DNA of 32,000 bases, taken from NCBI RefSeq assembly GCF_003944705.1, contig NZ_RWIS01000011.1:155253-187252 (forward strand), in the 5' to 3' direction. Each line of letters opens with the position of its first letter. Position 1 is the stretch's first letter. Positions 14,370 to 31,537 of this stretch are shown piece by piece. Position numbers and translations under genes: made by a program. This stretch comes from Hymenobacter metallilatus. Lineage in GTDB: Bacteria; Bacteroidota; Bacteroidia; Cytophagales; Hymenobacteraceae. A model generated the notes under the pieces. The model searched no databases. It saw only the letters and a list, made by a program, of their open reading frames with translations, and had not been told where the DNA came from.

Positions 14370-14397
14370 GGCTTTTGGAGAAGCTAGAAGGCGGTAA

Positions 14398-14581
14398 CTA
14401 GAGCTAGAAAAAAGGCAGTGCTAGCCTAGCTCCCCTCCTTAGAAAGGAGGGGCTGGGGGTGGTTGATAATCGGTTGGATAGTTTTTAGCACTAGCACTAG
14501 CACTAGATGACGGGCTGACGCTCCGGTCAACCACCCCCAACCCCTCCTTTCCAAGGAGGGGAGCTAGCTTTCTAGCTCTAG
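14398..14581. repeat. CTAG-rich nested palindrome filling the adaptor1-czcA spacer
   Basis: Outer arms CTAGAGCTAGAAA (14398-14410) / TTTCTAGCTCTAG (14569-14581) overlap the adaptor stop codon. The 39-nt inner arms 14428-14466 / 14527-14565 pair at 37/39. Each arm contains its own CCCCTCCTT..AAGGAGGGG hairpin. The centre carries (GCACTA)x3. Confidence 0.9.
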
Positions 14582-15678
14582 TCGTTCAACTCGTCGTAGA
14601 CCAGCAGCTGGTTTTGGGCGATGATGTGCTCCCCGTCTTTCAGGCCCGACTGCACGTAGCTCACGTCGCCCACGGTTTTGAAAAGGTGAACCTCCCGGGT
14701 TTCCACGTGGTTTTTGTCCTTGAACACCATCACAAAGTTGCGGTCCTTGTCGAAGACCACGCACTTGGCGGGCACGGCCAGCATCTGCTGGTTTTCGGTG
14801 TTGAGGACCTTAATCTGGGCGTACATCTCGGGCTTGAGCTGGTAGCCGGGGTTGTTGAGCTTCACGCGCACCTTCATCACCTTGCTTTCCGGGTCGAGCA
14901 CGTTGAACACCTTGTCGATGCGGCCCTGGAAATGCTTGTCGGGGTAGGAGAGGGTGGTCACGTCGGCCTGGTAGCCCTCCTGCACCTTGCTGATATCCGA
15001 CTCAAACACGTTGGCCATGATCCACACGTCGTCGAGGTTGCTCACCGTGAACAGGTTGCCCACGTTGTCGGCGTTGAACTGCATGTGGTCGGTCACGTTC
15101 TTCTCCGTGATGAAGCCCGAAATGGGGGCCCGCAGCGTGTAGGTGCCGTCGGCCGATACGCCGTACACGCCCAGCTGCTTGTTGGTTTTGCCCACGTTGC
15201 TCTGGGCCTTGCGCAGCTCCTGGCGGGCCAGCGTCACGTCGCGCTCCGAGGCCAGCCCCGATTTGTACTGGTCTTCCAGCACCGAGAGGTTTTTGCGGGC
15301 AATATCCAGGTCGGTGCCGGCGGTGCTATTCTGGTTCTGCAAGTCGGCAATTTCGCCGCTTTTGATGACGGCCAGGACTTGGCCTTTCGTCACATGGTCG
15401 CCCAGCTCCACGCTCAGCTGCTCCACCACGCCGCCCACCAGCGGGTACACCTTCACGGTTTTGTCGCCGTCGGTGGCAATCTGGCCCGAGAGGTTCAACT
15501 CGTCGCGCACGGGTTCCCGGCGCACCGTGTCAATCTTCAGCTCCCGCAGCATCTGGTCCGACATCGAGAAGCCGGCTTCGGCCTTCTGCGGGGCGTCAGT
15601 TTCTTCGGATTTCGAGCAGCCCGCCAATCCCAGGGCGAGCGGGAGGGCGAGGGGGAATAAGGGGAGGAGGCGGTTCAT
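14578..15678 (-). CDS. czcB: Efflux RND periplasmic adaptor (membrane fusion protein), lipoprotein; adaptor 1
   Basis: I chose the ATG at 15678 (MNRLLPLFPLALPLALGLAGCS lipobox); the track ORF extends through the repeat upstream. HlyD/CzcB-like barrel-sandwich, coiled-coil and beta-barrel blocks. It lies directly upstream of czcA. Confidence 0.9.
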   Translation of the reverse strand: MNRLLPLFPLALPLALGLAGCSKSEETDAPQKAEAGFSMSDQMLRELKIDTVRREPVRDELNLSGQIATDGDKTVKVYPLVGGVVEQLSVELGDHVTKGQVLAVIKSGEIADLQNQNSTAGTDLDIARKNLSVLEDQYKSGLASERDVTLARQELRKAQSNVGKTNKQLGVYGVSADGTYTLRAPISGFITEKNVTDHMQFNADNVGNLFTVSNLDDVWIMANVFESDISKVQEGYQADVTTLSYPDKHFQGRIDKVFNVLDPESKVMKVRVKLNNPGYQLKPEMYAQIKVLNTENQQMLAVPAKCVVFDKDRNFVMVFKDKNHVETREVHLFKTVGDVSYVQSGLKDGEHIIAQNQLLVYDELND

Positions 15679-15864
15679 ATTGGTTGAGGATGAAGGATTA
15701 AAGGATGAGGGATAAAGGATTGAAGGATGATGGATAAAGGATGTAGGAGTTGAAAAAACCAAGTGGCGCAGTCCCTCTACTCGTATGGCAACTTCTTGAT
15801 AGGGAAGTGCAAAGGCCCTTAGTCCTTCATCCCTTATCCTATATCCTTCATCCTTTATCCTACT
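15677..15864. repeat. GGAT-rich strand-skewed palindromic element, copy 1 (OMF-adaptor1 spacer)
   Basis: An 82-nt run without any C (15677-15758), made of GGATGAAGGAT/GGATAAAGGAT-type units. The opposing G-free run (15823-15864) includes ATCCTTCATCCT (15843-15854), the exact complement of 15687-15698. Confidence 0.9.
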
Positions 15865-17140
15865 GAAACACCGGGCGGCCCACGGCGTAGTTGAGTTGTT
15901 CGAAGGCGCGCACCCGGTTGGCGCGCAGGTTGTTGAGCTGCACCAGGTTGTTCTTGTAGCTCTCGTAGAAATCCAGGAACTCCACGACGGTGAGGTTGCG
16001 CTTGGCATAGCTCTCGTCAATGCCCTTCATCAGGCGGTCGAAGTCGGAGGTTTCCCGGTCGGTGCCCTGGTAGAGCTGGTCGTTCTGGCGGGCCAGGCGC
16101 CAGGCTTCCTGCACGTCGTTCTGCACCTGCAGCTGCTGCTGGCCCAGCTGGGCCTTGCTCACCTCAATCTGGTTCTGGGCCGTGCGGATATTGCCCTGGT
16201 TGCGGTTGAACAGGGGCACGGCCACGCCCAGCGTGAGGGCGTTGTAGTTCTGGATGTAGTTGCCGGCCCGGTCATACACGTAGCCCACGGCCAGGTCGGG
16301 GGTAGCCAGGGCGCGCTGCAGGCGCAGGTTCTGGGTTTGCTGCTGCACGGCGGCCTGGCGGGCCTTCAGGTCGGCGCGGTTCACCTGGGCCGAATCGATG
16401 AGCTGCGCCTCGGTGCGGTTGGTCAGGCTCAGGGCTTTCAGGCGGTTCTGGTCGGCCTGGGGCAGGTAGTAGGCCCCGGTGGTGTCGCGCATCAGGGTGC
16501 GCAGGTCGGCCTGCTCCGAGGCAATGTCGTTGAGCAGGGCCTGGCGCTCGTTGCGGAGCTGAAACAGGAAGGCTTTTAGTCGGATGACCTCTTTCAGGGC
16601 AATGTTGCCCTTGTCGTATTGGCCCTGGTACAGGCTCACGGTGCGCTGGAAGCTGGCTACTTCCTTGTCGTACACGCCCACGCTCTGCTGCTTGAAATAC
16701 AGGTCGTAGAAGGTGCTGCGGAGCTGGTAGCGCAGGGTGCGCAGCAAATCCTGAAAGGTAAACTGCTCCACCAGCGCATTCTGCTGGGCCACGCTGGCGG
16801 CGGCTTTGCGGCGGCCGGCTATGGCAAACAGCTGCTGCACCTGCACAATGGAGTTGCCGGTTTTGGTCACATCCAGCACCTTGTGGGTGAACTGGTTGTA
16901 GGCGTTCTGTTCGATGGAAACCGTGGGGTTGTCCCAGAGCCAGGCTTGCAGAATCTGGGCCTCGGCCGCCGATACGTTGTAGCGCTGGGCCAGCAGATTC
17001 AGGTTGTTCTGGATGAAGCGCTGTTCGGCGTCGGAAAGGGTAAGCCGCACCGTGTCGCCGGCTAGGGGAGCGGCCGTGGCGGGGCGGGTAAGAAGGCTGA
17101 GCAGCAGGGCCGCCATCAGCACGAAAACAGAGCGTTGCAT
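15860..17140 (-). CDS. czcC: TolC/CzcC-family outer-membrane efflux protein
   Basis: ATG at 17140 gives the signal peptide MQRSVFVLMAALLLSLLTRPATA; the track ORF starts at a TTG at 17167. Two OEP-type repeats rich in Q/L/A/N coiled coil. It sits in operon position upstream of the adaptor and pump genes. Confidence 0.88.
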   Translation of the reverse strand: MQRSVFVLMAALLLSLLTRPATAAPLAGDTVRLTLSDAEQRFIQNNLNLLAQRYNVSAAEAQILQAWLWDNPTVSIEQNAYNQFTHKVLDVTKTGNSIVQVQQLFAIAGRRKAAASVAQQNALVEQFTFQDLLRTLRYQLRSTFYDLYFKQQSVGVYDKEVASFQRTVSLYQGQYDKGNIALKEVIRLKAFLFQLRNERQALLNDIASEQADLRTLMRDTTGAYYLPQADQNRLKALSLTNRTEAQLIDSAQVNRADLKARQAAVQQQTQNLRLQRALATPDLAVGYVYDRAGNYIQNYNALTLGVAVPLFNRNQGNIRTAQNQIEVSKAQLGQQQLQVQNDVQEAWRLARQNDQLYQGTDRETSDFDRLMKGIDESYAKRNLTVVEFLDFYESYKNNLVQLNNLRANRVRAFEQLNYAVGRPVFQ

Positions 17141-17164
17141 AACCGGATTCGGTGGTTGGTTATG

Positions 17165-17223
17165 CAAGAGTACGCCCCCCGTATTAGGGCTGAATTAGAG
17201 GTAGATTAGAAACGGATTAGAGC
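17165..17223 (-). promoter_or_regulatory. Candidate activator-dependent promoter: four phased YTCTAAT direct repeats plus a -7-like TACTCTTG box
   Basis: ATTAG cores (plus strand) start at 17183, 17194, 17205 and 17216, in exact 11-bp steps. TACTCTTG (17172-17165, minus strand) has one mismatch to the Bacteroidetes -7 consensus TAnnTTTG. The ATG lies 25 nt downstream. Confidence 0.55.
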
Positions 17224-17392
17224 TGAAAAATTTTCTCAGAAAGGTCGTTTTCGGCTGATAAACGCAGGTTTTGGTAGTTGGCGCAACGGAAAAAACCGGC
17301 CGCTGCGCCAACTCCCGCTCCGAGGTCCACATGGCCCGCGCCACCCACAGCCCGGACTCAGACAGTTCATCGGGGTGTAAACCGTAGCCCAT

Positions 17393-17476
17393 AGTAGCGC
17401 GAACTTTGTAGTTCGCGTCCCCGAGCCGTCCGAACGATTGTCGTTCCGGGACGCCAACTACACAGTTCGCGCTACT
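17393..17476. repeat. Double-hairpin palindromic element in the adaptor2-OMF spacer
   Basis: AGTAGCGCGAACTTTGTAGTTCGCGTCCC pairs with GGGACGCCAACTACACAGTTCGCGCTACT at 27/29. The left arm is itself a hairpin, CGCGAAC-tttgta-GTTCGCG. Confidence 0.8.
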
Positions 17477-17510
17477 GCGCCCTGCCGGTGCACTGACCGG
17501 AATAGCGGGC

Positions 17511-18590
17511 CTAATCATTGAGCTCCTTGTAAATAAGCAGCGGGTTGCCGGTGACGACCTGCTCGCCCGGTATTATGCCGCTGCGCACGAAGCTCACGCC
17601 GCCCACCGTGGGGCCGGTTTCCACCGCTCGGGTTTCCACCTGCCCCGATTCCTGCAGCACCAGCGCGTAGCGGCGGCCGTTGGCAAATACCAAGCTGCCG
17701 GCTGGCACGGTGGGCAGCTGCTCGGGCAGAGTGCGGGTGAGCTGCACCTGGGTGTACATGCTGGGCTTCAGCAAGTGGCCGGGGTTGGGAAGCCGCACCC
17801 GCACCTGCAGGCTCTTGCTGGTGGCGTGCAGCAGGTTGAACACCTTGTCAACCTGCCCGGTGAATACCTTATCTGGGTAAGCCAGCGTCCGGATTTCGGC
17901 CGGTACGCCCACCCGCATGCCGGCAATATCGGCCTGGTACACGTCGGCCAGCACCCACACTTCATCCAGGTTGGCCAGGGTGAACAGGGCATCCACCTGC
18001 CCCGGCTCAAACTGCATCCCGGCGCTGACATGCTTGGCGGTGATGGTGCCCGCCAGCGGGGCCCGCACCACGTACCGCTCCTGCGAGGCCCCCAGCACCG
18101 CCTGCTGCTGCTGCACCCGGTGGGTTTCGGCCTGGGCCGTGCGCCACGCTGCCCGGGTCTGGGCCAGCTCCCGCTCCGAGGCCATGCCATCGGCGTGCAT
18201 TAATTCCGTAGCCGCCAGCTCCCGGCGGGCAGTAACCAGGTTGATGGCGGCCACCTGGGCTTCCTGGGCCAGCCCCGCCACCCGCGTGCTACGTACCACG
18301 GCCAGCACCTGGCCCTTGCTCACCTCGTCGCCCAGCGTCACGGGCACCGACTCCACTACGCCCCCGGCCACCGGGTACACGGGAGCCGTGCGGTCGGCAT
18401 TGGTAACTACCTGTCCACTGAGCTTTAGGTGGGTTTGCACCGGGGCCAGGCGCACGGTATCGGTGGTGAGGTTAGTGAGTCGGGGAGCAGCGGCGGGCGT
18501 TACGGTCTCGGCGGCTTCTTCGGAGCAGCTGGCCAGGCCCAGGCCGGAGGGTAACAGCAGCAGGCTGGCGAAGTGAAATAATCGGGTCAT
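17511..18590 (-). CDS. Second efflux RND periplasmic adaptor (lipoprotein), paralogue of adaptor 1
   Basis: ATG at 18590 gives MTRLFHFASLLLLPSGLGLASCS (lipobox). It shares blocks with 14578-15678 (GQVLAV, ASERE, YPDK.F.G..DKVFN, LKP.MY.Q, C-terminal ELND). Confidence 0.9.
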   Translation of the reverse strand: MTRLFHFASLLLLPSGLGLASCSEEAAETVTPAAAPRLTNLTTDTVRLAPVQTHLKLSGQVVTNADRTAPVYPVAGGVVESVPVTLGDEVSKGQVLAVVRSTRVAGLAQEAQVAAINLVTARRELAATELMHADGMASERELAQTRAAWRTAQAETHRVQQQQAVLGASQERYVVRAPLAGTITAKHVSAGMQFEPGQVDALFTLANLDEVWVLADVYQADIAGMRVGVPAEIRTLAYPDKVFTGQVDKVFNLLHATSKSLQVRVRLPNPGHLLKPSMYTQVQLTRTLPEQLPTVPAGSLVFANGRRYALVLQESGQVETRAVETGPTVGGVSFVRSGIIPGEQVVTGNPLLIYKELND

Positions 18591-18614
18591 GGGGTAAGCA
18601 ACACAAGTGAGGTG

Positions 18615-18673: not shown

Positions 18674-18733
18674 GTGAGTTTTTGATGAATTTTCTTCCGA
18701 ATTCTGAGAATAGAGGTCGGAATAGGGAAGGAT

Positions 18734-18782: not shown

Positions 18783-18798
18783 TGGTTCGTAGGATGGG

Positions 18799-18949
18799 CA
18801 GAACGGTGTAGAGACGCAACACTTTGCGTCTCGTCGTTGAACGACACGGTAATGTAGCGTTTGAATAACGTTAGCAGCGACGTGGTAACGCACAATCCAA
18901 ACAACGTCAGCAACGACGAGACGCAAAATATTGCGTCTCTACATCGTGC
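18799..18949. repeat. GAGACGCG double-hairpin element, copy 2
   Basis: The first 47 nt match 10622-10668 at 44/47. The stems read GAGACGCA/TGCGTCTC, a compensated G-C to A-T change relative to copy 1. The right hairpin is at 18918-18939. Confidence 0.9.
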
Positions 18950-18967
18950 AATAACTCAACCTTTCTG

Positions 18968-20317
18968 CTACAATTCCACCTCTACCACCGTGCCCTGGCC
19001 CGGCCGGGAGCTGATGTGCACCTCGCCGCCGTGCAGCTGAATGATTTTGCGGGCCAGCGGCAGCCCCACGCCGTGCCCCACCACCTGCCGGGCGTTATCG
19101 GCCCGGAAAAACGGCTGAAATACCTGCGGCAGGGCTTTTTCGCTGATGCCGATGCCGTGGTCCTGCACCCGGATGTAACGGCGGCCAGCCCGGTATTCCA
19201 GCTGCACTTCCACCGGCTGGTCGGCGGAGGAGTATTTCAGGGCGTTGTCCAGCAGGTTGGTGAGGGCCCGGCTCAGCAGCTGGCGGTTGCCCTGGATTTC
19301 GAGAGCCTCGGCATCCTCCGGCAGCTGCCCGAACGTGAGCTGCACCCGGCGGCGCTGCTCCGGCAGCACCGCTTCCCGGGCTTCGGCCAGCAGCTCATCC
19401 AGCCGGATTTCGTCGCGGGCCCCGGTATTGGTTTGGGTAAGGTCGAGCAGGTTGTTGATGAGCAGTTTCAGCTGTTGCAGCTCGTGCAGCACCGAGGCCA
19501 CGCCTTCCCGGTACGCGGCCGGCTCCCGCTCCCGGTTCAGCAGCACCTGCAGCTCACCAATGGTGGCCGTGAGGGGCGTGCGCAGCTCGTGCGAGGCATT
19601 GCTGACGAAGGTGCGCTGCGTTTCGAAGCCTTCCTCCAGGCGCTCCAGCATGCGGTTGAAGGTGCGGGCCAAACGGGTTATTTCGTCCTGCTCGTGGCTG
19701 ATGCCTTCACTCACGCGCAAGTGCAGATCCTGGGTGGTGATGCGGTCCACCTGGTCGTTGACACGGGCAATCGGAGCCAGGGCCTTCCCGGCAAACACCC
19801 GGCCGGCCACGTATATCACCACCAGGCTTGCCACGAAGATGCTGGCCAGAATCAGCACCAAATGCTCCAGCCGGGCTGCGCCGGAGTGGTTTTCCGCGGC
19901 AGCCACAATAACGAACTGGCCCTGATTATCGGTGTAAAATAGCCCGATAGCCTGCCGGTTGCCCAGCGTAAAATACACTTCTTTCTCAGTGATAATCCGC
20001 GTCAGCATCCGGTCGGAAATGGCCACGCGCGTATCCTGCTCAATGAAGCGGGGCTGCAGCTTATCGTCGTAAATCTGTAGTACCTCGCCGGTGAGCGTAC
20101 GCAGATAGCGGCGCTGAAACTCCCGGAATGCCTCGGCCCGCAGCTCGTCCTGCTCCAGAAACACGTAACCCGTCACCTCAGCCCGGTCGCGCAGGCGCTG
20201 GTGAAATTCCTCGTGGGTGTAATCGGCCTGCAGCAGGTAGATGGTGGTCATCACCGCCAGCAAAATCACTGCCACCACGCCCACAAACAGCCACGTCAAT
20301 CGGTTCCGGATGGTCAT
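18968..20317 (-). CDS. Sensor histidine kinase (two TM, periplasmic domain, HAMP, HisKA, HATPase_c)
   Basis: TM1 LTWLFVGVVAVILLAVMTTIYLL, TM2 LVLILASIFVASLVVIYVAG, H-box FVSNASHELRTPLT, N-box LLDNALKY, G-boxes DHGIGI and GHGVGL. Confidence 0.93.
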   Translation of the reverse strand: MTIRNRLTWLFVGVVAVILLAVMTTIYLLQADYTHEEFHQRLRDRAEVTGYVFLEQDELRAEAFREFQRRYLRTLTGEVLQIYDDKLQPRFIEQDTRVAISDRMLTRIITEKEVYFTLGNRQAIGLFYTDNQGQFVIVAAAENHSGAARLEHLVLILASIFVASLVVIYVAGRVFAGKALAPIARVNDQVDRITTQDLHLRVSEGISHEQDEITRLARTFNRMLERLEEGFETQRTFVSNASHELRTPLTATIGELQVLLNREREPAAYREGVASVLHELQQLKLLINNLLDLTQTNTGARDEIRLDELLAEAREAVLPEQRRRVQLTFGQLPEDAEALEIQGNRQLLSRALTNLLDNALKYSSADQPVEVQLEYRAGRRYIRVQDHGIGISEKALPQVFQPFFRADNARQVVGHGVGLPLARKIIQLHGGEVHISSRPGQGTVVEVEL

Positions 20318-20553
20318 GGAGGAGTGGTGAAGTTGTGAAAGGTGAAGTTGTGAAGGGCAAGCAAAGGACCTAAAAGAACGTCATTCTGAGCGAAGCCGGA
20401 GGCGAAGTCGAAGAATCTCTACCGCACTAGTAATCCTGGTCGTGAGGCAACGAAGCGGTAGAGATTCTTCGACTTCGCCTCCGGCTTCGCTCAGAATGAC
20501 GTTCCTTTTCTCACTTCTCACTTCTCACTTCTCACTTCTCACTTCTCACTCCT
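20318..20553. repeat. Composite palindromic element filling the RR-HK spacer
   Basis: 40-nt C-free run with a 15-bp tandem repeat (GTGAAGTTGTGAAAG / GTGAAGTTGTGAAGG, 20327-20356). Perfect 50-bp inverted repeat 20376-20425 / 20455-20504. (TTCTCAC)x6 at 20508-20549 lies inside a 52-nt G-free run and overlaps the RR stop codon. Confidence 0.95.
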
Positions 20554-21223
20554 GGGCCCGCAACACGTAGCCCATGCCCACCACCGTGTGAATGAGCTTG
20601 CGGGAGAAGGGCTTGTCCACTTTGTTGCGCAGGTAGTTCACATACACATCCACCACGTTGGAGCCGGCGTCGAAGGAGTCCTCCCACACGTCGGCGGCCA
20701 GCTCGGCGCGGCTGAGCACGCGGCCGGGGTGGCGCAGCAGCAGCTCCAGCAGCCCAAATTCGCGGGCGGTGAGCTTGAGCGGCTGCCCGGCCCGCGTCAC
20801 GGTTTTGGCGGCCGAGTCCAGTGTCAGGTCCTCAAAGCTGAGGGCCGAGCCCTTAGCCTGCTGACCGCGCCGCCGCGTAAGGGCCCGCACCCGGGCCACC
20901 AGCTCCGGAAAATCGAAAGGCTTTACCAGATAATCGTCGGCCCCGCCGCCAAAGCCGTGCAGCTTGTCCTGGGTGGTGCCCAGGGCCGTGAGCAGGAGCA
21001 CCGGCGTCTGCTGGTCCTGCGCCCGGATGGCTTCCAGTACCTCCAGCCCGCTGAAATAGGGCAGAATCACGTCCAGAATAATCAGCTCGTAGGAGTGGGA
21101 GAGGGCCAGCTGCCGCCCAAAGCGCCCATCGTAAGCCACCTCCACCTCAAATCCTTCTTCTTCCAGCCCCCGCTTTATAAACGCCGATACTTTGGGCTCA
21201 TCTTCAACCAGCAGAATTTTCAT
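20546..21223 (-). CDS. OmpR/PhoB-family response regulator (receiver plus winged-helix DNA-binding domain)
   Basis: MKILLVEDE, phospho-acceptor context LIILDV.LP, K in YLVKPF, and a C-terminal trans_reg_C block (LT.REF.LLELL......VLSR..L...VW........NVVDVY...LR.K.D). Confidence 0.95.
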   Translation of the reverse strand: MKILLVEDEPKVSAFIKRGLEEEGFEVEVAYDGRFGRQLALSHSYELIILDVILPYFSGLEVLEAIRAQDQQTPVLLLTALGTTQDKLHGFGGGADDYLVKPFDFPELVARVRALTRRRGQQAKGSALSFEDLTLDSAAKTVTRAGQPLKLTAREFGLLELLLRHPGRVLSRAELAADVWEDSFDAGSNVVDVYVNYLRNKVDKPFSRKLIHTVVGMGYVLRAQE

Positions 21224-21476
21224 GGGGAAATGGTTGAATGGGTGGATTGTTGAATGGGTGAACTGTCATCCTGAGCATGTCGCGCATCAAGCGAGGACGA
21301 AGGAACTTATAACGGCAGAACGGCTGGTGGCGGAACGGAAGGTATGCTGAACTAGGCAAACGTGGTCAGGTCCTTCGTCCTCGCTTGATGCGCGACATGC
21401 TCAGGATGACAGATTTTCTTAAATCAGCTATCCATCCGTTCAACCACCCAACCATCCACCTACCTAGCCACCCACC
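21224..21476. repeat. Composite palindromic element between the TPR gene and the RR gene
   Basis: 39-nt C-free run (21224-21262) with TTGAATGGGTG twice. Perfect 42-bp inverted repeat 21263-21304 / 21371-21412 (CTGTCATCCTGAGC...). The right flank is CCAC/CCAT-rich and G-poor up to the TPR stop codon. Confidence 0.95.
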
Positions 21477-21818
21477 CTAGTCCTCGTCCTCGTAATCCAG
21501 ACCCAGCAGCTGGTTCAGGGCTTGCTGGATTTCACTGGCGGCGTGCAGCTGCCCGGCTTTGCGGGCCACGCTGAGGCCTCTGCGGTAAACTTTTTCGGCT
21601 TCTTCGGGCTTTTCCAGCTGTTGCAGCATCTTGCCGGCGTGGTAGTACGTACCCACGTAGTCCGGATGCTCGTCGAGTAGTTTCTGGTAGTACATCATGG
21701 CCCGTTCCGGCTCCGTGGCCCGGTATTCGGTGGCCAGCGCGTAGATGGTGAATGCGTCGGTAGGATCATCCTGGTAGAAGACCAGGAGTTGTTGCAGGCG
21801 GCTCGGCGCAGTTTCCAT
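21477..21818 (-). CDS. Small tetratricopeptide-repeat protein
   Basis: ATG at 21818 (METAPSRLQQL..). TPR-like A/Y/L spacing (YALATEY......A..YYQKLL...P.YVGTYYHAGK). Confidence 0.7.
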   Translation of the reverse strand: METAPSRLQQLLVFYQDDPTDAFTIYALATEYRATEPERAMMYYQKLLDEHPDYVGTYYHAGKMLQQLEKPEEAEKVYRRGLSVARKAGQLHAASEIQQALNQLLGLDYEDED

Positions 21819-21892
21819 GGGGCGGTAGTTTTGAGTATCTTCGCCCCAAATTTGACACTTTCTCCTAGTATCTTCCATATAAGCAGCCGTAG

Positions 21893-22633
21893 ATGAAGTT
21901 TCTCGTTTGCATCAGCAACGTACCCGACACGACCACCAAAATCACGTTCACTCCTGATAATAAGGAGTTTAACAAGGCTGGTGTACAGTTCGTAATCAAT
22001 CCCTGGGATGAGTATGCACTCACTCGCGCCATTGAGCTGAAAGAAGCCCAGGGTGGCGGCACCGTAACGGTACTCAACGTAGGGGAGGCCGATACCGAGC
22101 CCAACATCCGCAAGGCGCTGGCCATTGGGGCCGACGACGCTATCCGCGTGAATGCCCACCCCAAAGATGCCTTCTTTGTAGCCCAGCAGATTGCCAGCAT
22201 CGCCAAAGACGGTGGCTACGACGTGATTCTGATGGGCAAGGAAAGCATCGACTACAACGGCTTCCAGGTGCACGGCATGGTAGGCGAACTGCTCAACATC
22301 CCGACGGTGGCCCCGGCCATGAAGCTGGATATGAGCGGCAACACCGCCACGCTGGAGCGCGAAATTGAAGGCGGCAAGGAAATCGTGGAAGTAAACACGC
22401 CCTTCGTGGCTTCCTGCCAGCAGCCCATGTGCGAGCCCCGCATTCCCAACATGCGCGGCATCATGACGGCCCGCACCAAGCCCCTGAAAGTGGTGGAGCC
22501 CACCGCCGACGCCGCCCGTACGGAAGTATCGTCGTACGCGCTGCCCCCGGCCAAGCAAGGCGTGAAGCTCATCCCCGCCGAAAACGCCGGTGAGCTGATC
22601 AAACTGCTCCGCAACGAAGCCAAGGTTATCTAA
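21893..22633 (+). CDS. etfB: Electron transfer flavoprotein beta subunit
   Basis: MKFLVCISNVPDTTTKI..........GV.FVINP.DEYAL..A...KE and GKESIDYN motifs. It is followed by etfA. Confidence 0.95.
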   Translation: MKFLVCISNVPDTTTKITFTPDNKEFNKAGVQFVINPWDEYALTRAIELKEAQGGGTVTVLNVGEADTEPNIRKALAIGADDAIRVNAHPKDAFFVAQQIASIAKDGGYDVILMGKESIDYNGFQVHGMVGELLNIPTVAPAMKLDMSGNTATLEREIEGGKEIVEVNTPFVASCQQPMCEPRIPNMRGIMTARTKPLKVVEPTADAARTEVSSYALPPAKQGVKLIPAENAGELIKLLRNEAKVI

Positions 22634-22745
22634 AAAGTAGAATGATGAGTGTTGAATTATGAGTGATGAATTGGTCTGTCCTTGCTCACGCGGGCGGGAT
22701 GCATTATTCGCAAATTCCTAATTCAACATTCAGCACTCATAACTC
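22634..22745. repeat. Strand-skewed imperfect palindrome in the etfB-etfA spacer
   Basis: 45-nt C-free run from the stop codon (22631-22675) with ATGAGTG/TTGAATT units. It opposes the G-poor AATTCAACATTCAGCACTCAT arm, and pairing needs G.T wobbles. Confidence 0.75.
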
Positions 22746-22753
22746 TCTGAAAA

Positions 22754-23731: not shown

Positions 23732-23732
23732 T

Positions 23733-23807
23733 GTGATGAAATGTGCGACATGCGGGAAATGTGCTGCGGCCATTCCCGTATGTTGCACATTTTCACATTC
23801 TTCACAC
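23733..23807. repeat. Imperfect strand-skewed hairpin after etfA
   Basis: AATGTGCGACATGCGGGAA pairs with TTCCCGTATGTTGCACATT (two wobble or mismatch positions). It is flanked by GTGATGAAATGTG / CACATTTTCACATTCTTCACAC. Confidence 0.7.
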
Positions 23808-23832
23808 TAGCATATTCACCACGACCCTACTT

Positions 23833-24459
23833 GTGAAAAAAATACCGCTCGAAATCCTGGGCCTCTCGTCCAGCCAGTCGCAGTCGGGTTCTTTCGCCCT
23901 CATCCTGGGTGAAAAAACCGGCAACCGGCGTCTGCCGATCATTATCGGCATGTTTGAGGCGCAGAGTATTGCCATCCAGATAGAGAAAATCAACCCGAAC
24001 CGGCCCCTCACCCACGACCTGTTCAAGTCGTTTGCCGAGCAGGTGCACGTGGCGGTGCTTGAAGTACTGATTTCCGATTTGAAGGAAGGCGTTTTTTACT
24101 CCAAAATTGTGTGCTCCGATGGAGCCACCACTTTCGAGTTGGATTCACGCCCTTCTGATGCCATTGCCATTGGTTTACGCTTCGGGGTACCCATTTTTAC
24201 GGTGGAAAGCGTGCTGAGCGAAGCCGGCATTATCCTGTCGGACCTCGACGAAAACGCTGAGGACTCTGATGAGGATGACGACGACGATGAGGATGATGAC
24301 TCCGGCGACCGGCCGGTGCCGTCGCCCGCCGAGCCCAAGGAGCCCAGCGGCCAGGTGTCGTTGGATGAGCTAACCAAAATGCTGGCCCAGGCCCTGGAGC
24401 GTGAGGATTACGAAAAAGCTGCCAAAATCCGGGACGAACTCAACAAGCGCAACGGCTAA
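23833..24459 (+). CDS. Bifunctional nuclease (DUF151/BFN) family protein with C-terminal UVR motif
   Basis: I chose the GTG start at 23833 (VKKIPLEILGLS..). Motifs RRLPIIIG.FEAQSIA and RPLTHDL, an acidic linker, and the C-terminal EDYEKAAKIRDELNKR UVR-like helix. Confidence 0.8.
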   Translation: MKKIPLEILGLSSSQSQSGSFALILGEKTGNRRLPIIIGMFEAQSIAIQIEKINPNRPLTHDLFKSFAEQVHVAVLEVLISDLKEGVFYSKIVCSDGATTFELDSRPSDAIAIGLRFGVPIFTVESVLSEAGIILSDLDENAEDSDEDDDDDEDDDSGDRPVPSPAEPKEPSGQVSLDELTKMLAQALEREDYEKAAKIRDELNKRNG

Positions 24460-24546
24460 CGAGCTGTTCCTGCGAGGACGCCAGGCATTCCGCCGGGCAG
24501 GCGGTATCAGTCCGTCCTTTCCCAAGCGCCAAGCCTTAATCTATGC

Positions 24547-24582
24547 AAAAGCCCCTACCGTGTAAAGCGGTAGGGGCTTTTG
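24547..24582 (+). terminator. Rho-independent terminator after the nuclease gene
   Basis: Perfect 14-bp stem AAAAGCCCCTACCG / CGGTAGGGGCTTTT with a 7-nt loop. The T-run forms part of the 3' arm. Confidence 0.8.
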
Positions 24583-24599: not shown

Positions 24600-24684
24600 C
24601 TTCACGTCTCGGCCTCGGCGCGTGCTGGTGTTGTTGAGGTGACACTGGTCAAACACGAGACGCGCGGTGTCGCGTCTCTGCAAC
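24600..24684. repeat. Degenerate GAGACGCG-family element
   Basis: Intact hairpin GAGACGCG-cggtgt-CGCGTCTC at 24657-24678. The left part, CGTCTCGGCCTCGGCGCGTGCTG, resembles the reverse complement of 10691-10710. Confidence 0.6.
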
Positions 24685-24820
24685 TGTTCTGGTACCAGGA
24701 GATTCTCATATTCGGTTGATTACAGCGCTGAGAAGGACAAATTAGCGGCGCCGCCGGTACGCAATGACAGAAGCTGAACCCGCCGTACCTTTCTGCCCGC
24801 ATCAACCTCCCAACTTCTGC

Positions 24821-25372
24821 ATGGAAACTCCCGTCACTCCCGACCTGCGCTACCCCATCGGCCACCCCGTACTACCCGACGAGGCCCTTGACCGGGGTGC
24901 CCGGACGGCCTACCTGGCCCACCTGGCTACGTTGCCCGACCAGGTACGGGCGGCCGTGGCTGGCCTCACGCCCGAGCAGCTGGATACCCCCTATCGGCCT
25001 GAGGGCTGGACAGTACGCCAGGTAATCCATCATCTGCCCGATTCTCACCTGAACGCTTATACCCGCTTCCGGCTGGCTCTCACCGAGGAAAACCCCACCA
25101 TCAGGCCCTACAACGAGGCCGCCTGGGCCGAGTTGCCCGATGTGGCCACTACCCCGCCGGCCGTGTCGCTGGCGCTGCTGGAGGCGCTGCACATCCGCTG
25201 GGTGCGGCTGCTGCGGGGCCTTACTGATGCGCAGTGGCAGCGCACGTTCCTGCACCCCGAATCCAAACGCACCTACACGCTCGATCAGGCACTGGTACTG
25301 TACTCCTGGCACGGCCGGCACCACCTGGCCCACATCGGCAGCCTGGTGCAGCGCGAAGGATGGCGGCAGTAG
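24821..25372 (+). CDS. DinB/YfiT-family putative metal-dependent hydrolase (bacillithiol-transferase-like)
   Basis: DLRYPIG start (ATG at 24821), LDTPYRPEGWTVRQVIHHL.DSH.N.Y.RF.LAL.E, and the YSWHGRHHLAHI His triad. Confidence 0.85.
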   Translation: METPVTPDLRYPIGHPVLPDEALDRGARTAYLAHLATLPDQVRAAVAGLTPEQLDTPYRPEGWTVRQVIHHLPDSHLNAYTRFRLALTEENPTIRPYNEAAWAELPDVATTPPAVSLALLEALHIRWVRLLRGLTDAQWQRTFLHPESKRTYTLDQALVLYSWHGRHHLAHIGSLVQREGWRQ

Positions 25373-25378
25373 ATTTTT

Positions 25379-25476
25379 AGACATGAGACGGTGAGACATG
25401 AGAAGTGAGACTTCCGTTCTTGCGTAGGGGCCAATGAACAGAAGTCTCACTTCTCATGTCTCACCGTCTCATGTCT
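25379..25476. terminator. Perfect 36-bp inverted repeat between convergent stop codons (bidirectional terminator-like element)
   Basis: 25379-25414 is the exact reverse complement of 25441-25476, with a 26-nt loop. It lies between the stop codons at 25370-25372 and 25477-25479. Confidence 0.8.
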
Positions 25477-26286
25477 CTAAATATTAATAGCTTCGTCGGT
25501 GGTAGCGGCGGCGAGGCCGCCTTCGGTTTCGTCATCTACCTTCTTGGCGGCGCGCACGAGGCTGCTGCTAAAGATAAATTCTTTGAGCTCGGGTACCTGG
25601 GCGTTGAGAATTTCGTCTTTGTTACCGTCCCAAAGCTTCTGGCCCTTATAAAGAAAAATGATATGGTCCCCGATTTCGATAACGGAGTTCATATCGTGGG
25701 TTACTACTACGGTGGTAATGCCGTATTCGTGGGTGATTTCGTGGATTAGCTCGTCGATTTTGATGCTGGTGAGCGGGTCGAGGCCCGAGTTGGGCTCGTC
25801 GCAGAACAGGTAAGTGCAGTTGGGTGCAATGGCGCGGGCAATACCCACCCGCTTCTTCATGCCGCCCGATATTTCAGAAGGCATTTTAGTGCCGGCATTT
25901 TCCAGCCCTACCCGCTTCAGGCAAAACTCCACCCGGTCGCGCCGCTCTTCCCGGCTCATTTCCGGCGTCAGCATCTTCAAAGGAAACTCTACATTTTCAT
26001 ACACTGTCATGGAGTCGAACAGGGCCGAGCCCTGGAACAGCATCCCAATCTTGCGCCTGATTTCCTGGCGAATCTGCACTTTGTTGTTGGTGAACACCGT
26101 GCCATCGAAGGTAATGCTGCCTAAATCAGGCTTCATAAGGCCTACAATACACTGCAACAGGACCGATTTGCCCGTACCGGAGCCCCCCAACAGCAGATTA
26201 CACTTGCCCGTTTCGAAGGTGCAGGTGATGCCCTTGAGTATCTGGTTGCCGTCGAAGGATTTCTGAACGTTATGGACTTCAATCAT
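25477..26286 (-). CDS. ABC transporter ATP-binding protein, MlaF-like
   Basis: Walker A GGSGTGKS, signature SGGMKKR, Walker B LFCDEP. It is adjacent to an MlaE-like permease gene. Confidence 0.92.
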   Translation of the reverse strand: MIEVHNVQKSFDGNQILKGITCTFETGKCNLLLGGSGTGKSVLLQCIVGLMKPDLGSITFDGTVFTNNKVQIRQEIRRKIGMLFQGSALFDSMTVYENVEFPLKMLTPEMSREERRDRVEFCLKRVGLENAGTKMPSEISGGMKKRVGIARAIAPNCTYLFCDEPNSGLDPLTSIKIDELIHEITHEYGITTVVVTHDMNSVIEIGDHIIFLYKGQKLWDGNKDEILNAQVPELKEFIFSSSLVRAAKKVDDETEGGLAAATTDEAINI

Positions 26287-26382
26287 GGGGTAAAAGGATA
26301 ATGGATGCAGGATAATGGATGCAGGATGAGAGACACCATTGAACGACAGTCCTTCATCCTACTACCCTAATCCTTTATCCTA
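26287..26382. repeat. GGAT-rich strand-skewed palindromic element, copy 2 (mlaE-mlaF spacer)
   Basis: Tandem AGGATAATGGATGC x2 (26295-26322). The right arm AGTCCTTCATCC...ATCCTTTATCCTAC shares both end blocks with 15821-15863, and its CTA is the mlaE stop codon. Confidence 0.85.
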
Positions 26383-27111
26383 CAACAACAACGCCGCCAG
26401 GACGAAATCGGCAATGAGAATGGCAATAATGGAGTTGTTTACGGCCGTGGTGCTGGCATTGCCCACTTCCAAAGCTCCCCCCTGGGTATAAAACCCTTTG
26501 AAGGAGGATATAGCCGATACCAAAAACGCAAATACCACCGATTTAATCAGGGCAAAAACGATGTTGTAAGGAATAAAGTCGGTGCGGATGCCTTCCACAT
26601 ATTCCTGGGCCGACAGGGCCCCGGTGAGGGAGCCCGCCAGATACCCCCCAATGATGGACAGCGCCATGGCCAGAATCACGAGCAGCGGGAACATGAGCAT
26701 GGAGGCCAGAATGCGCGGAAATACCAGGTAAGATGCCGAGTTGATGCCCATTACCTCCAGTGCCGAAACCTGCTCGGTAATGCGCATGGTGCCCAGGCCG
26801 CCCGCAATGCTGGAGCCCACCTTGCCTGCCAGCACAATGCTGGTAATGGTAGGGGCCAACTCCAGAATGGTCATTTCGCGCACCATATAGCCAATGGTAC
26901 TTTTGGGAATGAGCGGGTTGGTGAGGTTATAGGCAATCTGCACGCAGGTAACGGCGCCAATAAATGCCGATACAATGGCGACAATGAAGATGGAGTTGAT
27001 GCCAATAACGATGCACTCATCCAAGGTGCGCTGCCAGAGCACCGTCAGGCGTTCTTTTCGCGTAAGCATGCTCTGAAGGAAGAGCAGGAATTCACCGAAG
27101 GCTTTGACCAT
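26380..27111 (-). CDS. MlaE-family ABC transporter permease
   Basis: ATG at 27111 (MVKAFGEFLLF..). Multi-TM, with the MlaE-like blocks GINSIFIV, EL.PT.T..VLAGKVGS..A..LGTM..TEQ..ALE.MG.N. Confidence 0.88.
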   Translation of the reverse strand: MVKAFGEFLLFLQSMLTRKERLTVLWQRTLDECIVIGINSIFIVAIVSAFIGAVTCVQIAYNLTNPLIPKSTIGYMVREMTILELAPTITSIVLAGKVGSSIAGGLGTMRITEQVSALEVMGINSASYLVFPRILASMLMFPLLVILAMALSIIGGYLAGSLTGALSAQEYVEGIRTDFIPYNIVFALIKSVVFAFLVSAISSFKGFYTQGGALEVGNASTTAVNNSIIAILIADFVLAALLL

Positions 27112-27938: not shown

Positions 27939-27943
27939 GGCGC

Positions 27944-28705: not shown

Positions 28706-28739
28706 CTTTAAATCTGACCACACCATATAACCCAGGCCT

Positions 28740-29432: not shown

Positions 29433-29455
29433 GTTGCCGATTGATGACAACCAGT

Positions 29456-29571
29456 AGAACGTCATTCCGAGCGTAGTGTGACGGAGCCGAGGAATCTCGC
29501 GTGCTGACGTTGAAATTACTATTGCAACCTCAGCACGCGAGATTCCTCGGCTCCGCTCGGAATGACGTTCT
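29456..29571. repeat. GTCATyCTGAGC-family palindromic element (SDR-gldA spacer)
   Basis: 16-bp outer arms 29456-29471 / 29556-29571 and 26-bp inner arms 29482-29507 / 29530-29555. The left arm carries a 10-nt extra block. Confidence 0.9.
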
Positions 29572-29596
29572 GATAGAACTAGACCAAAGTACTCAC

Positions 29597-30505
29597 ATGG
29601 TAGAAATAACCAACCTCACCAAAATCTTCGGCCCGCAAACGGCCGTGGACAACGTCAGCTTCTCGGTCGGGAAGGGCGAAATCCTGGGGTTTCTGGGGCC
29701 GAACGGGGCCGGTAAGTCCACCACCATGAAAATTGCCACCGGCTACCTGCCGCCCTCGGCCGGCACGGTAGTAGTGGATGGTTTCGATGTGCAGACCGAT
29801 CCGCTGGAAGTACGCCGCCGGGTGGGCTACCTGCCTGAGCATAATCCGCTGTACCTGGATATGTACGTGCACGAGTACCTCGAATTCATTGGCTCGGTGC
29901 ACGGGCTGGGCGGCAGCGCGCTGCGCCAGCGGGTGCGGCAGCTGGTGGATCGGGTGGGGCTGGGACGCGAGCAGAACAAGCAGATCGGAGCCCTCTCGAA
30001 AGGCTACCGCCAGCGCGTGGGCTTGGCCCAGGCCCTCATCCACGACCCCGGCGTGCTCATCCTCGACGAGCCCACCACCGGCCTCGACCCCAACCAGATT
30101 GGCGAAATCCGCAGCCTGATTCGGGAGCTGGGCCAGGACAAAACGGTCATTTTCAGCACCCACATTCTGCCCGAGGTGGAAGCGTTGTGCAGCCGCGCGG
30201 TCATCATCAACCGGGGCCGCCTCGTGGCCGACTCACCCGTATCGGAGCTGGGAGCCCGCGCCGCCGGCGAAACCATCATCCGCGCCGAGTTCGAGCAGGC
30301 CATCGACGTTGCCCCGCTGCGGGCGTTGCCGGGCGTGCTGGCCGTGGAGGCCGAAACTGGCCACACCTACCGCATCCGGGCCCGCCCCGGCGCCGACCAG
30401 CGCGGGGCCATTTCGCGCCTCGCCGCCGCCCAGGGCTGGGTGCTGCTGGGCCTCCGTCAGGAAGAACAGAGCCTGGAGCAGGTGTTTCAGGAGCTGACCA
30501 GATGA
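29597..30505 (+). CDS. gldA: Gliding-motility ABC transporter ATP-binding protein
   Basis: ATG at 29597. Walker A GPNGAGKST, signature LSKGYRQR, Walker B LILDEP. It is followed by gldF- and gldG-like genes. Confidence 0.88.
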   Translation: MVEITNLTKIFGPQTAVDNVSFSVGKGEILGFLGPNGAGKSTTMKIATGYLPPSAGTVVVDGFDVQTDPLEVRRRVGYLPEHNPLYLDMYVHEYLEFIGSVHGLGGSALRQRVRQLVDRVGLGREQNKQIGALSKGYRQRVGLAQALIHDPGVLILDEPTTGLDPNQIGEIRSLIRELGQDKTVIFSTHILPEVEALCSRAVIINRGRLVADSPVSELGARAAGETIIRAEFEQAIDVAPLRALPGVLAVEAETGHTYRIRARPGADQRGAISRLAAAQGWVLLGLRQEEQSLEQVFQELTR

Positions 30506-30509
30506 AGAA

Positions 30510-30623
30510 GAACGTCATGCTGAGCGAAGCCGAAGCATCTCTACCGCTTCGTTGTAATGGTAAGTAAGTAGTCAGAGGTAGAGATGCTTCAACTACGCCT
30601 CCGGCTCCGCTCAGCATGACATT
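30510..30623. repeat. GTCATyCTGAGC-family palindromic element, decayed (gldA-gldF spacer)
   Basis: GAACGTCATGCTGAGCGAAGCC... / ...GGCTCCGCTCAGCATGAC. The left arm lacks a 12-nt block that is present in the right arm and in the 20376 copy. Confidence 0.85.
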
Positions 30624-30673
30624 GTGCTTGCTTTTGATTATCCCATTACCCCATCATCACATCACCAGCCTAG

Positions 30674-31399
30674 ATGCTCGCCATCCTTCGCAAAGAATTT
30701 AACAGCTTCCTGAACTCGCCCGTAGCCTACGTGGTGCTGGGGGTGTTTCTGGTGGCTACCGGCCTGTTCGTGTGGGTGTTCCCCGACAGCTCGGTGCTCG
30801 ACTACGGGTTTGCCGATTTGCAGACGCTATTCAACATTGCCCCCTGGATTTTCCTGTTCCTGATTCCGGCCCTCACCATGCGCACATTTGCCGAGGAAAA
30901 GAAAGCCGGCACCATGGAGCTGCTACTCACCCGCCCGCTCACCGACGGCCAGATCATCGGGGGCAAGTACCTGGCCTGCCTGCTACTGGCGTTGCTGGCG
31001 TTGGTGCCTACGCTGCTCTACTACTACTCGGTGTACCAGCTGGGCAACCCCGCCGGCAACATCGACTCGGCCGCGACGGTGGGCTCCTACCTGGGGTTGG
31101 CGCTGCTGGCAGCCGTGTTTGCGGCCATCGGGGTGCTGGCCTCGGCCCTGACGCGCGACCAGATTGTGGCCTTTTTGGTGGCCGTGGTGGGTTGCTTTCT
31201 GGTGTACTCCGGCTTCGATTCGCTGGCCTCGGTGTTTGATGGCGGTCTGGCCTATTACATCGGGCAGCTGGGCATTGCCGCCCACTACCGCGACCTGGCC
31301 AAGGGCCTCATCGACTCCCGCGACCTGCTGTACTTCCTGAGCCTGATTGCCGGCTGCCTGCTGGCCACGCGCCTGGTGCTGCAAAGCCGCAACTGGTAA
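30674..31399 (+). CDS. gldF: Gliding-motility ABC transporter permease
   Basis: 241 aa ABC-2-type permease with MLAILRKEFNSF.NSP.AYVV N-terminus. It lies between the gldA- and gldG-like genes. Confidence 0.88.
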   Translation: MLAILRKEFNSFLNSPVAYVVLGVFLVATGLFVWVFPDSSVLDYGFADLQTLFNIAPWIFLFLIPALTMRTFAEEKKAGTMELLLTRPLTDGQIIGGKYLACLLLALLALVPTLLYYYSVYQLGNPAGNIDSAATVGSYLGLALLAAVFAAIGVLASALTRDQIVAFLVAVVGCFLVYSGFDSLASVFDGGLAYYIGQLGIAAHYRDLAKGLIDSRDLLYFLSLIAGCLLATRLVLQSRNW

Positions 31400-31406
31400 C
31401 ACTATA

Positions 31407-31512
31407 CCGTCATCCTGAGCATTCCGCGCATCGAGCGGCGTCGAAGGACCTTTTCACGCTGGAACGAATTATTCTCACGCGGTAAGGTCCTTCGCTTCCC
31501 TCAGGATGACAG
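31407..31512. repeat. GTCATCCTGAGC-family palindromic element, decayed (gldF-gldG spacer)
   Basis: CCGTCATCCTGAGCATTCCGCGCATCGAGCGGCGTCGAAGGACC / GGTCCTTCGCTTCCCTCAGGATGACAG. The left arm resembles 21263-21304, and the right arm has an internal deletion. Confidence 0.8.
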
Positions 31513-31537
31513 CTGATTTCTTGTAACTCGCCACGCT

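Follow-up and report, generated by a model that had tools for sequence, protein, structure and literature searches.

Long palindromes of common polarity at gene junctions in Hymenobacter: candidate dispersed repeats at the 3' ends of genes

Why are the spacers between neighbouring genes of one orientation filled, almost end to end, by long palindromes that all carry the same compositional polarity? The question is raised by a 32,000-nt stretch of Hymenobacter DNA of ~60% GC (hereafter the window), for which an earlier note, made from the sequence alone, had described operon junctions with spacers of about 90–250 nt occupied by nested palindromes, a C-depleted arm on the left and stop and start codons at their ends. 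The organization of polycistronic mRNAs in Bacteroidota, which initiate translation without Shine-Dalgarno (SD) sequences, is poorly understood, and half of the co-directional spacers in Hymenobacter hold a strong hairpin. The reading we favour, at roughly even probability, is that the junction palindromes are dispersed elements resembling repetitive extragenic palindromes (REPs) and miniature inverted-repeat transposable elements (MITEs) that sit 3' of genes, and that their polarity arises through a filter imposed by coding signals.

Anatomy and repeat families of the palindromes

The co-directional junction spacers of the window are 93–253 nt long and nearly filled by palindromes. A repeat search recovered inverted repeats at every junction named in the earlier note, with arms of 30–54 nt that are 92–98% complementary (92–100% for stems overall), and RNAfold predicted a single dominant stem-loop filling each junction spacer. 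Fold strength was expressed as a z-score of the minimum free energy (MFE) against dinucleotide shuffles (200 shuffles for selected junctions, 12 for all longer spacers), and spacers with z < −3 were counted as structured. With 200 shuffles, the etfB/etfA and etfA/BFN spacers gave z-scores of −4.0 and −7.6, mlaE/mlaF gave −4.5 on the sense strand, and the element at 25373 gave −17.7 and −16.3 on its two strands; with 12 shuffles, the longer spacers ranged from −5 to −20 and mlaE/mlaF gave −1.3 when folded on the + strand. The divergent spacers of the window were unstructured (z −0.3 to +1.2). The described length and filling of the junction spacers were therefore borne out (z −4 to −20), while the claim of nesting held only at 14370, 20318 and 21224, where the nested look arises because different repeat families form composites.

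The palindromes are a mixture of low-complexity hairpins, whose arms are inverted 7–8-nt tandem arrays, and dispersed repeat families, which sometimes occupy the apex of the former. For comparison, an EtfA genome scan provided 20 Hymenobacter or Solirubrum loci, 7 loci from Pontibacter, Adhaeribacter, Rufibacter or Botryobacter (the Pontibacter group) and 53 from other Bacteroidota, each of 20 kb with codon-based gene calls and with conserved synteny around etfBA. When all 271 spacers of the 20 Hymenobacter loci were compared with each other, 80 shared sequence with non-orthologous spacers, which identifies the elements as dispersed repeats; the largest clusters held 22 (family B1), 15 ('GAATTATGAAT' heptamer hairpins), 6 and 5 (family B2) spacers. 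Hairpins with periodic arms occur at 4.1 per 100 kb in Hymenobacter, 1.45 in the Pontibacter group and 0.9 in other Bacteroidota, and most of these arms have period 7 (12/16, 2/2 and 6/8, respectively).

In the window, the skewed arms are tandem arrays of period 7 or 14, 15, 8, 16 and 21 according to Tandem Repeats Finder (TRF), and arrays of period 7, 14, 15 or 21 lie at 15687–15748, 15823–15861, 20508–20550, 22640–22672, 25379–25411, 25444–25477 and 26295–26327. Six elements have a strictly C-free run of 23–82 nt on the left and a strictly G-free run of 22–52 nt on the right. At OMF/MFP1 (spacer 15679–15859), a heptamer-array hairpin spans 15677–15864 (z −5.0), with a C-free run at 15677–15758 (82 nt) and a G-free run at 15823–15864; its ends are touched by the OMF stop (15860–15862) and the MFP1 start (15676–15678), and TRF found 8.6 copies of AGGATGA (period 7) at 15687–15748 and 5.6 copies of period 7 at 15823–15861. 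The RR/HK spacer (20318–20545) holds a composite (20316–20553, z −20.5) in which heptamer arms at 20316–20371 (C-free 20316–20357) and 20502–20553 (G-free) enclose an inner palindrome of the B1 family ('GTCATTCTGAGCG', 20372–20508) with 54-nt arms that are 98% complementary. The right outer arm is (CTCACTT)x6 and includes the RR stop (20546–20548); TRF reported 6.1 copies of TTCTCAC at 100% identity over 20508–20550. The TPR/RR composite (spacer 21224–21476; element 21222–21466, z −8.7) is built alike from outer arms of 8-nt period (21222–21262, C-free, and 21430–21466, G-free at 21439–21466) around a B2 palindrome ('GTCATCCTGAGC', 21263–21412).

On the + strand, the etfB/etfA spacer (22634–22753) is covered by a hairpin at 22631–22753 that is C-free from the TAA stop onwards (22631–22675) and G-free at 22711–22732, leaving an unpaired, A-rich stretch of ~10 nt before the ATG at 22754. 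The following etfA/BFN spacer (23732–23832) contains a hairpin of 'AATGTGC' repeats (23725–23809, C-free 23713–23745, G-free 23786–23809) with the etfA stop (23729–23731) within the stem; arms of this type recur in L003, L004 and L017, again at etfA/BFN, and in L005 at mlaE/mlaF. The mlaE/mlaF hairpin of the window itself (spacer 26287–26379; element 26285–26392, C-free 26285–26307) carries 2.4 copies of 'AGGATAATGGATGC', and its G-free run (26350–26392) includes the mlaE stop (26380–26382). A seventh element that had been counted among these, at 25373–25482 (47-nt arms, period 7/15, 'GAGACATGAGAAGTGAGAC'), is moderately skewed (13 G, 7 C); moreover, it does not mark an operon junction, as had been supposed for 25373–25476, but lies between the convergent genes DinB (+) and mlaF (−), where a stop follows and not a start.

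Families B1 and B2 are related and share the termini GTCATyCTGAGC...GCTCAGrATGAC. Besides the RR/HK and TPR/RR centres, they comprise the SDR2/gldA palindrome (spacer 29433–29596; B1 element 29456–29571, outer arms not skewed, z −20.0), a degenerate B1 element on the + strand at gldA/gldF (spacer 30506–30673; 30505–30667, consisting of a palindrome at 30505–30629 and then a G-free leader at 30637–30667 upstream of gldF) and a B2 palindrome at gldF/gldG (spacer 31400–31537; 31409–31511). Two further families are present in the window. The first, 'CCCCTCC/GGAGGGG', provides the inner arms (14426–14466/14527–14567) of the MFP1/czcA palindrome (spacer 14370–14577; element 14397–14582, z −9.2), whose outer arms (14397–14410/14569–14582) contain the MFP1 stop (14578–14580, minus strand). 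This family was also found at other junctions in L004 and L006, and related CCCCTCCCC/GGGGAGGGG palindromes in L005, L007 and L014. The second is the REP-like 'GTAGAGACGC' family, represented by a 'GTAGAGACGC..GCGTCTCTAC' palindrome downstream of HK (18803–18947) and a second copy at 10626–10734.

Position and polarity across loci

Co-directional spacers in Hymenobacter have a median length of 129 nt, and only 6% are ≤20 nt long, compared with 27% in the Pontibacter group and 23% in other Bacteroidota. Structured spacers in Hymenobacter make up 84% of the convergent, 50% of the co-directional and 4% of the divergent class (61–67%, 29–34% and 0–29% in the outgroups), and the median distance of the hairpins is 11 nt from the upstream stop, against 43 nt from the following start (quartiles 17, 43 and 109). 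This convergent-rich, divergent-poor distribution is that of a 3'-end element, as for terminators and REPs, and not that of an operon-junction device, so that the specificity for operon junctions originally proposed does not hold. Stops do lie in or at an arm at 10564, 14578–80, 15860–62, 20546–48 and 26380–82, as the earlier note had it. Its statement that the second arm ends a few nucleotides before the next start needs correction at etfA/BFN, where the hairpin ends ~30 nt before the GTG at 23833; at etfB/etfA, stems end 0–23 nt from the ATG.

A terminator scan gave 12 terminator-like hits, fewer than expected from shuffles, and none of them fell on a junction hairpin; there is no U-tract, and the sequences downstream of the junction stems are C/A-rich. 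A sigma-70 promoter scan likewise gave no signal at the junctions, with counts below shuffle expectation, and none of the junction spacers contains the Bacteroidetes −7 motif TAnnTTTG. With neither a U-tract nor a TAnnTTTG promoter in the spacers, the hairpins are most likely transcribed through. The sole canonical terminator of the region, AAAAGCCCCTACCG..CGGTAGGGGCTTTTG at 24546–24582 after BFN, has its C-rich arm first, that is, the opposite polarity.

These distances bear on a role in translational coupling, in which the stem would juxtapose stop and start so that a terminating ribosome melts its base or is shunted across and reinitiates, replacing SD-based coupling. The stop codon is within an arm at five window junctions, stops at etfB/etfA are 0–11 nt from the first paired base in addition to the short distance on the ATG side, EtfAB requires balanced subunits, and initiation in Bacteroidetes relies on unstructured initiation regions (PMC6847099). 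However, the elements are at least equally frequent at stop|stop junctions, where there is nothing to reinitiate, the distances to starts are broad, the hairpins are dispensable at most junctions, and the Pontibacter group couples etfB and etfA by a spacer of 2–3 nt with no hairpin. We therefore regard coupling as unlikely.

Outside the window, polarity was lost in the noise of a first test that only matched neighbouring runs strictly free of C and of G, and inverted repeats and folds were used instead. With the window left out, G(5')–C(3') pairs at etfB/etfA exceed C–G pairs in 18 of 19 species and equal them in the other. Over all Hymenobacter spacers outside the window, G-first hairpins outnumber C-first hairpins by 110:47 in the co-directional class (p = 5e-7) and by 41:8 in the divergent class, with 11:16 in the convergent class. 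Among co-directional inverted repeats, the bias resides in low-GC arms (30:4 G-first; 15:1 for those with strong skew), high-GC repeats giving 28:23; the C-first hairpins are mostly canonical terminators (A-tract, GC stem, T-tract) or members of the CCCCTCC family. Strongly skewed hairpins are G-first by 19:1 when the second arm lies <30 nt from a start and by 6:3, with 22 unskewed, when it lies >60 nt away. The chance of about 1/64 first assigned to the common polarity assumed independence, which several arms of shared family do not have, but the polarity itself is strongly confirmed on independent data. The reasoning that a palindrome presents the same polarity to transcripts of either strand was also correct.

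Part of this bias could lie in the leaders. Bacteroidetes initiate translation without SD sequences, and AUG is depleted at positions −21 to −1 (Baez et al., 2019; PMC6847099). Even where divergent spacers lack hairpins, their leaders are poor in G (0.15–0.21, with C at 0.31), and the junction leaders of the window have 0–2 G in the last 30 nt. As G-free sense tracts also reach start codons where there is no hairpin (8521–8545, 9675–9692 and 28717–28734), G-poor leaders are a general feature of the genome.

We also scanned metagenomes for (GAGAAGT)n, the arm unit of RR/HK, which yielded 120 loci of 27–69% GC, and searched for a partner array within 350 nt. The complementary array lay downstream in 29 cases and in no case upstream only; 3 loci had one on either side. 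Sixteen cases could be classified: in 14 of them an ORF stops at the first arm, and 8 are junctions of the stop|stop type. Hairpins, single polarity and stops in the first arm thus extend across the genus and into metagenomes. Because this family is G-first by 29:0 and half of the classifiable cases are stop|stop, the composition of leaders is not the sole cause of polarity.

The possibility that the pattern is a chance or compositional artefact, with G-poor leaders merely facing C-poor regions, is refuted and retains next to no probability. The G-first MFE folds of unstructured divergent spacers are indeed purely compositional, but the length and complementarity of the stems, z-scores down to −20 against dinucleotide shuffles and the 29:0 polarity of one family in unrelated contigs argue against it.

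In four of the metagenomic loci (L087, L088, L169 and L193), the (GAGAAGT)n hairpin carries a GTCAYCC(C/T)GAGCG-type mini-palindrome at its apex, like RR/HK and TPR/RR; either hairpin apexes are a favoured target of that family or both parts travel together. A separate idea, that a purine-first, pyrimidine-second order gives a weak RNA:DNA hybrid, was dropped, as L006 and L007 keep the G/C polarity although their first arm is rich in T and their second in A.

According to the reading that we favour, two kinds of element would be combined: hairpins with inverted degenerate 7–8-nt arrays, and multi-copy palindromic repeats that often occupy the apex of such a hairpin. Both would be co-transcribed and form long stem-loops where a cistron ends. 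The polarity would come from a filter set by coding signals. Where an ORF ends, the arm has to contain stops or put up with them, and TAA, TAG and TGA contain no C; the arm before a start should avoid AUG, GUG, UUG and SD-like runs of G. A G-first hairpin would meet both demands at stop|start as well as at stop|stop junctions, and, the palindrome being symmetric, from either strand, whereas a C-first hairpin would violate both everywhere. Inheritance within families, together with tandem amplification of one unit, could then render whole arms C-free or G-free. The structure, families, placement, polarity and turnover of the elements are direct observations; the filter and any effect on RNA are inferences.

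Turnover, conservation and selection

The evolution of the elements should proceed at the DNA level under the same reading, through slippage of units, correction of one arm by the other, inversion of loops, and gain and loss. A comparison with Hymenobacter sp. 102 (CP188172), a sister strain whose DNA is ~94% identical to the window and whose EtfA protein is identical, is consistent with this. In sp. 102, the RR/HK element lacks half of its core, has 2 instead of 6 CTCACTT units on one arm and is 15 nt shorter on the other, with a spacer of 103 nt vs 228 nt in the window. The ~60-nt centre of TPR/RR (21304–21371) is present there as the exact reverse complement (L001/L002 8479–8693), having flipped through recombination between the 42–52-nt arms. 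At etfB/etfA the two strains differ in the arm by a single 7-nt unit, and at mlaE/mlaF the hairpin is absent, an unstructured spacer of 48 nt standing in its place. With unit indels of 7 nt, 15 nt and 4x7 nt between the two strains, the differences are the outcome of DNA-level processes, namely slippage, arm–arm recombination and gain or loss. Filled and partial states were seen in this comparison, and no clean empty site or target duplication of the MITE type was identified.

Across species the occupancy of orthologous junctions varies: structured spacers were found in 2/6 species at RR/HK, 2/5 at TPR/RR, 4/12 at mlaE/mlaF, 4/7 at OMF/MFP1, 7/13 at gldA/gldF and 9/12 at SDR2/gldA. Given this patchiness, a required coupling device is unlikely at RR/HK, TPR/RR, mlaE/mlaF and OMF/MFP1. 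The etfB/etfA junction is different. Its spacer is 101–189 nt long in 19 of 20 Hymenobacter species and 2–3 nt long in all seven loci of the sister genera, and a long hairpin of short-period repeats is found at the orthologous position in the same proportion of Hymenobacter species. The sole Hymenobacter locus with a short (25 nt), hairpin-free etfB/etfA spacer is that of H. translucens (L008 9973–10003), which nature thus offers as a deletion control for tests of function. The hairpin sequences fall into several unrelated-looking families (GAATTAT.., TTAGAGC.., GGTTTTT.., ATTAAAA.., GAGACAT..), the distribution of which is discordant with EtfA similarity.

If the hairpins were maintained as RNA, mismatches in the sense strand should tend towards G:U rather than A:C. 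Stem mismatches that are wobble pairs in the sense vs the antisense strand numbered 65 vs 50 in Hymenobacter and 24 vs 10 in other Bacteroidota, and among 84 structured co-directional spacers the more stable fold is that of the sense strand in 34 and that of the antisense strand in 50. The sense-strand G:U signature was not found in Hymenobacter stems; as neither their mismatch counts nor strand MFE show a sense bias, nothing points to long-term selection on the sense RNA. Watson–Crick pairing of the arms is near-perfect, which fits maintenance at the DNA level or youth.

Several observations weigh against the reading of the elements as filtered dispersed repeats. Stops in the first arm are barely more frequent than expected from composition (3.0 vs 2.55 per 36 nt), and closure of all three frames, which we considered as a design principle, is weakly supported, being seen in 8 of 30 cases. 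G-free runs of 40–80 nt far exceed the ~20 nt of an initiation region, and the dominance of period 7 is not accounted for. At etfB/etfA, in addition to the occupation of the site in 19 of 20 species, conservation within a family exceeds that of four-fold degenerate etfAB sites in the arms but not in the loops: identity between L010 and L018 is 0.93 and 0.85 in the arms, 0.65 at four-fold sites and 0.45 in the loop. The persistence of this hairpin and the conservation of its arms are the best arguments for, and hint at, selection on at least some of the hairpins.

They lend some plausibility to a rival view, which we hold to be possible but a good deal short of probable, in which the hairpins are selected RNA elements, such as terminators or attenuators without a U-tract, RNase III sites or barriers to 3'-exonucleases, that set cistron levels or insulate the next initiation region. 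The 3'-end placement is that of terminators, the last 8–25 nt before the etfA ATG are unpaired and A-rich across species, and spacers without TAnnTTTG make read-through transcripts necessary. Compensatory double changes were detected at the etfB/etfA hairpin in 5 of 34 pairs; this covariation, which the earlier note had suggested as a check, does not separate maintenance of the RNA from maintenance of the DNA. Against selection on RNA stand the lack of U-tracts and of terminator-scan matches at the junction hairpins, the lack of a sense-strand G:U bias, and the occurrence of most junction hairpins in a minority or about half of the species, with absence possible even in a strain of 94% identity; the near-perfect arms and dispersed families also fit young DNA repeats.

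More doubtful still is a broader proposal, that inverted G-first heptamer-array hairpins form a widespread and undescribed class of bidirectional 3'-end or intercistronic element, densest in Hymenobacter, present too in other Bacteroidota and in metagenomic contigs of 27–69% GC, and kept by selection, as at etfB/etfA throughout the genus, which would act as U-tract-independent terminators or insulators or as protein-switchable hairpins to set cistron ratios without SD sequences.

The conservation of the arms and their prevailing period 7, on which TRF agrees, could alternatively indicate protein-binding arrays, in which the 7-nt repeats serve as sites for a protein that binds single-stranded nucleic acid and covers ~7 nt (a cold-shock domain, S1/OB fold or other) and their inverted order allows a switch between a hairpin and a coated open form. 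S1, Csp or CsrA have been proposed to bind TAACTGA arrays, including those of five Bacteroidetes (MacGregor, 2015; PMC4679880). The units, however, vary widely between junctions and species (GGATGAA, GTGAGAA, GAATTAT, TTAGAGC, GGTTTTT, AGCTNNC), which argues against one sequence-specific binder, and period 7 could instead result from slippage or from 7 not being divisible by 3. We consider such arrays improbable, slightly more so than coupling.

Dispersed repeats under a coding-signal filter could still affect the RNA. By analogy with REP and Correia elements, the stem-loops are likely to act as 3'-exonuclease barriers, RNase III substrates or partial terminators, and among the roles first proposed, RNase processing or stability appears most compatible with the data. 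If the elements are tolerated selfish DNA, their strict polarity would be a natural read-out of the sequence permitted beside stops and starts in a bacterium without SD sequences. If they are selected, they would represent a new type of intercistronic control element, for which the genus-wide etfB/etfA hairpin would be an easy test case.

Known repeats, neighbouring genes and annotation

REPs and bacterial interspersed mosaic elements (BIMEs) of Enterobacteria and Pseudomonas are the closest known systems in their habit: they too are multi-copy extragenic palindromes located after genes or inside operons and not at divergent promoters, co-transcribed and folding into stem-loops (Di Nocera et al., 2013; PMC3733652). 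Many dispersed palindrome copies are likewise present here (the clusters of 22, 15, 6 and 5 over the 20 loci), and the 'GTAGAGACGC' family of the window bears a GTAG head, as do GTAG-tagged REPs. The heptamer hairpins differ in being longer (arms of 25–80 nt), of low complexity, variable between sites and compositionally polarized. The GTAG head is confined to the 'TGTAGAGACGC' family (10626–10734 and 18803–18947) and is not found in heptamer-array hairpins or in B1/B2. Copies of a REP-like 'ACGGTGTAGAGACGC..GCGTCTCTACATCGT' palindrome lie at 10626–10734, 18803–18947 and ~24655–24680, with the GTAG head typical of REPs associated with REP-associated tyrosine transposases (RAYTs); no transposase was found among the window genes by Pfam.

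Correia elements, or Neisseria miniature insertion sequences (NEMIS), and other MITEs are inverted repeats of 100–150 nt between co-transcribed genes that form hairpins in mRNA, are substrates of RNase III and vary between strains. The window elements share the long-hairpin form, the intergenic seat and the presence/absence variation. There is, however, no sequence similarity, fixed terminal inverted repeats and target duplications were not seen, and the arms are slippage-prone arrays. Bidirectional intrinsic terminators are similarly palindromic, located at 3' ends, rich at convergent junctions and polar in their flanks (A-tract 5' and U-tract 3'), but the window hairpins have no U-tract, far longer stems and lower GC, and canonical terminators at the same loci tend to be C-first. 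Eukaryotic foldback (FB) transposons build their long inverted arms from short tandem repeats on either side of a variable centre; belonging to another domain of life and another scale, they are analogous in architecture only.

Short tandemly repeated repetitive (STRR) sequences of cyanobacteria are intergenic heptamers. Direct arrays of the heptamer TAACTGA precede starts in Beggiatoaceae, cyanobacteria and five Bacteroidetes (MacGregor, 2015; PMC4679880). Like the arrays of the window, these are intergenic tandem 7-nt units containing stops near coding boundaries, and some are in Bacteroidetes. They are direct repeats with no hairpin, in which the stop-containing orientation mostly stands just before starts (PMC4679880), whereas the window arrays are inverted pairs with the stop-containing array after the upstream stop and its G-free complement before the start. 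We found no description in the literature of junction palindromes in Hymenobacter or Bacteroidetes, the nearest being PMC4679880, which does not include inverted polarized hairpin arrays. The elements are best seen as a combination of REP/MITE-like palindromes with heptamer tandem repeats, under a polarity rule that appears to be previously undescribed.

The genes flanking the palindromes were assigned by Pfam, which bore out the names given in the earlier note. On the − strand these are czcA (11208–14369), MFP1 (14578–15678), OMF (15860–17140), a second MFP (17511–18590), HK (18968–20317), RR (20546–21223), TPR (21477–21878), mlaF (25477–26286) and mlaE (26380–27111), and on the + strand etfB (21893–22633), etfA (22754–23731), the BFN nuclease (23833–24459), DinB (24764–25372), gldA (29597–30505) and gldF (30674–31399); gldG follows from 31538, and two SDRs and a DUF2807 protein were also identified. 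Rfam gave no match at the gathering score anywhere in the window, and ARAGORN no tRNA or tmRNA gene.

The palindromes are relevant to the annotation and assembly of Hymenobacter genomes, as they mark hot spots of rearrangement and inversion and yield spurious ORFs and false upstream starts. The longest-ORF calls for gldA and BFN begin at GTG codons (29501 and 23743) and run through palindromes; the true starts, according to orthologue comparison and a codon model, are 29597 and 23833. Synteny with sp. 102 stops exactly at the stop of the second MFP (breakpoint 17511), and the OMF–MFP1–czcA block and everything to the left of it have no counterpart in that strain; L004 and L016 retain the order of the window. 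The spacer at the breakpoint (17141–17510, 370 nt) is packed with palindromes (17393–17476) and includes a spurious ORF of 107 aa (17195–17518) that has no Pfam match. Finally, mlaE is only 67% identical to its orthologue in sp. 102, compared with 92–100% for the neighbouring proteins, which suggests a local replacement by recombination that coincides with the presence or absence of the mlaE/mlaF hairpin.

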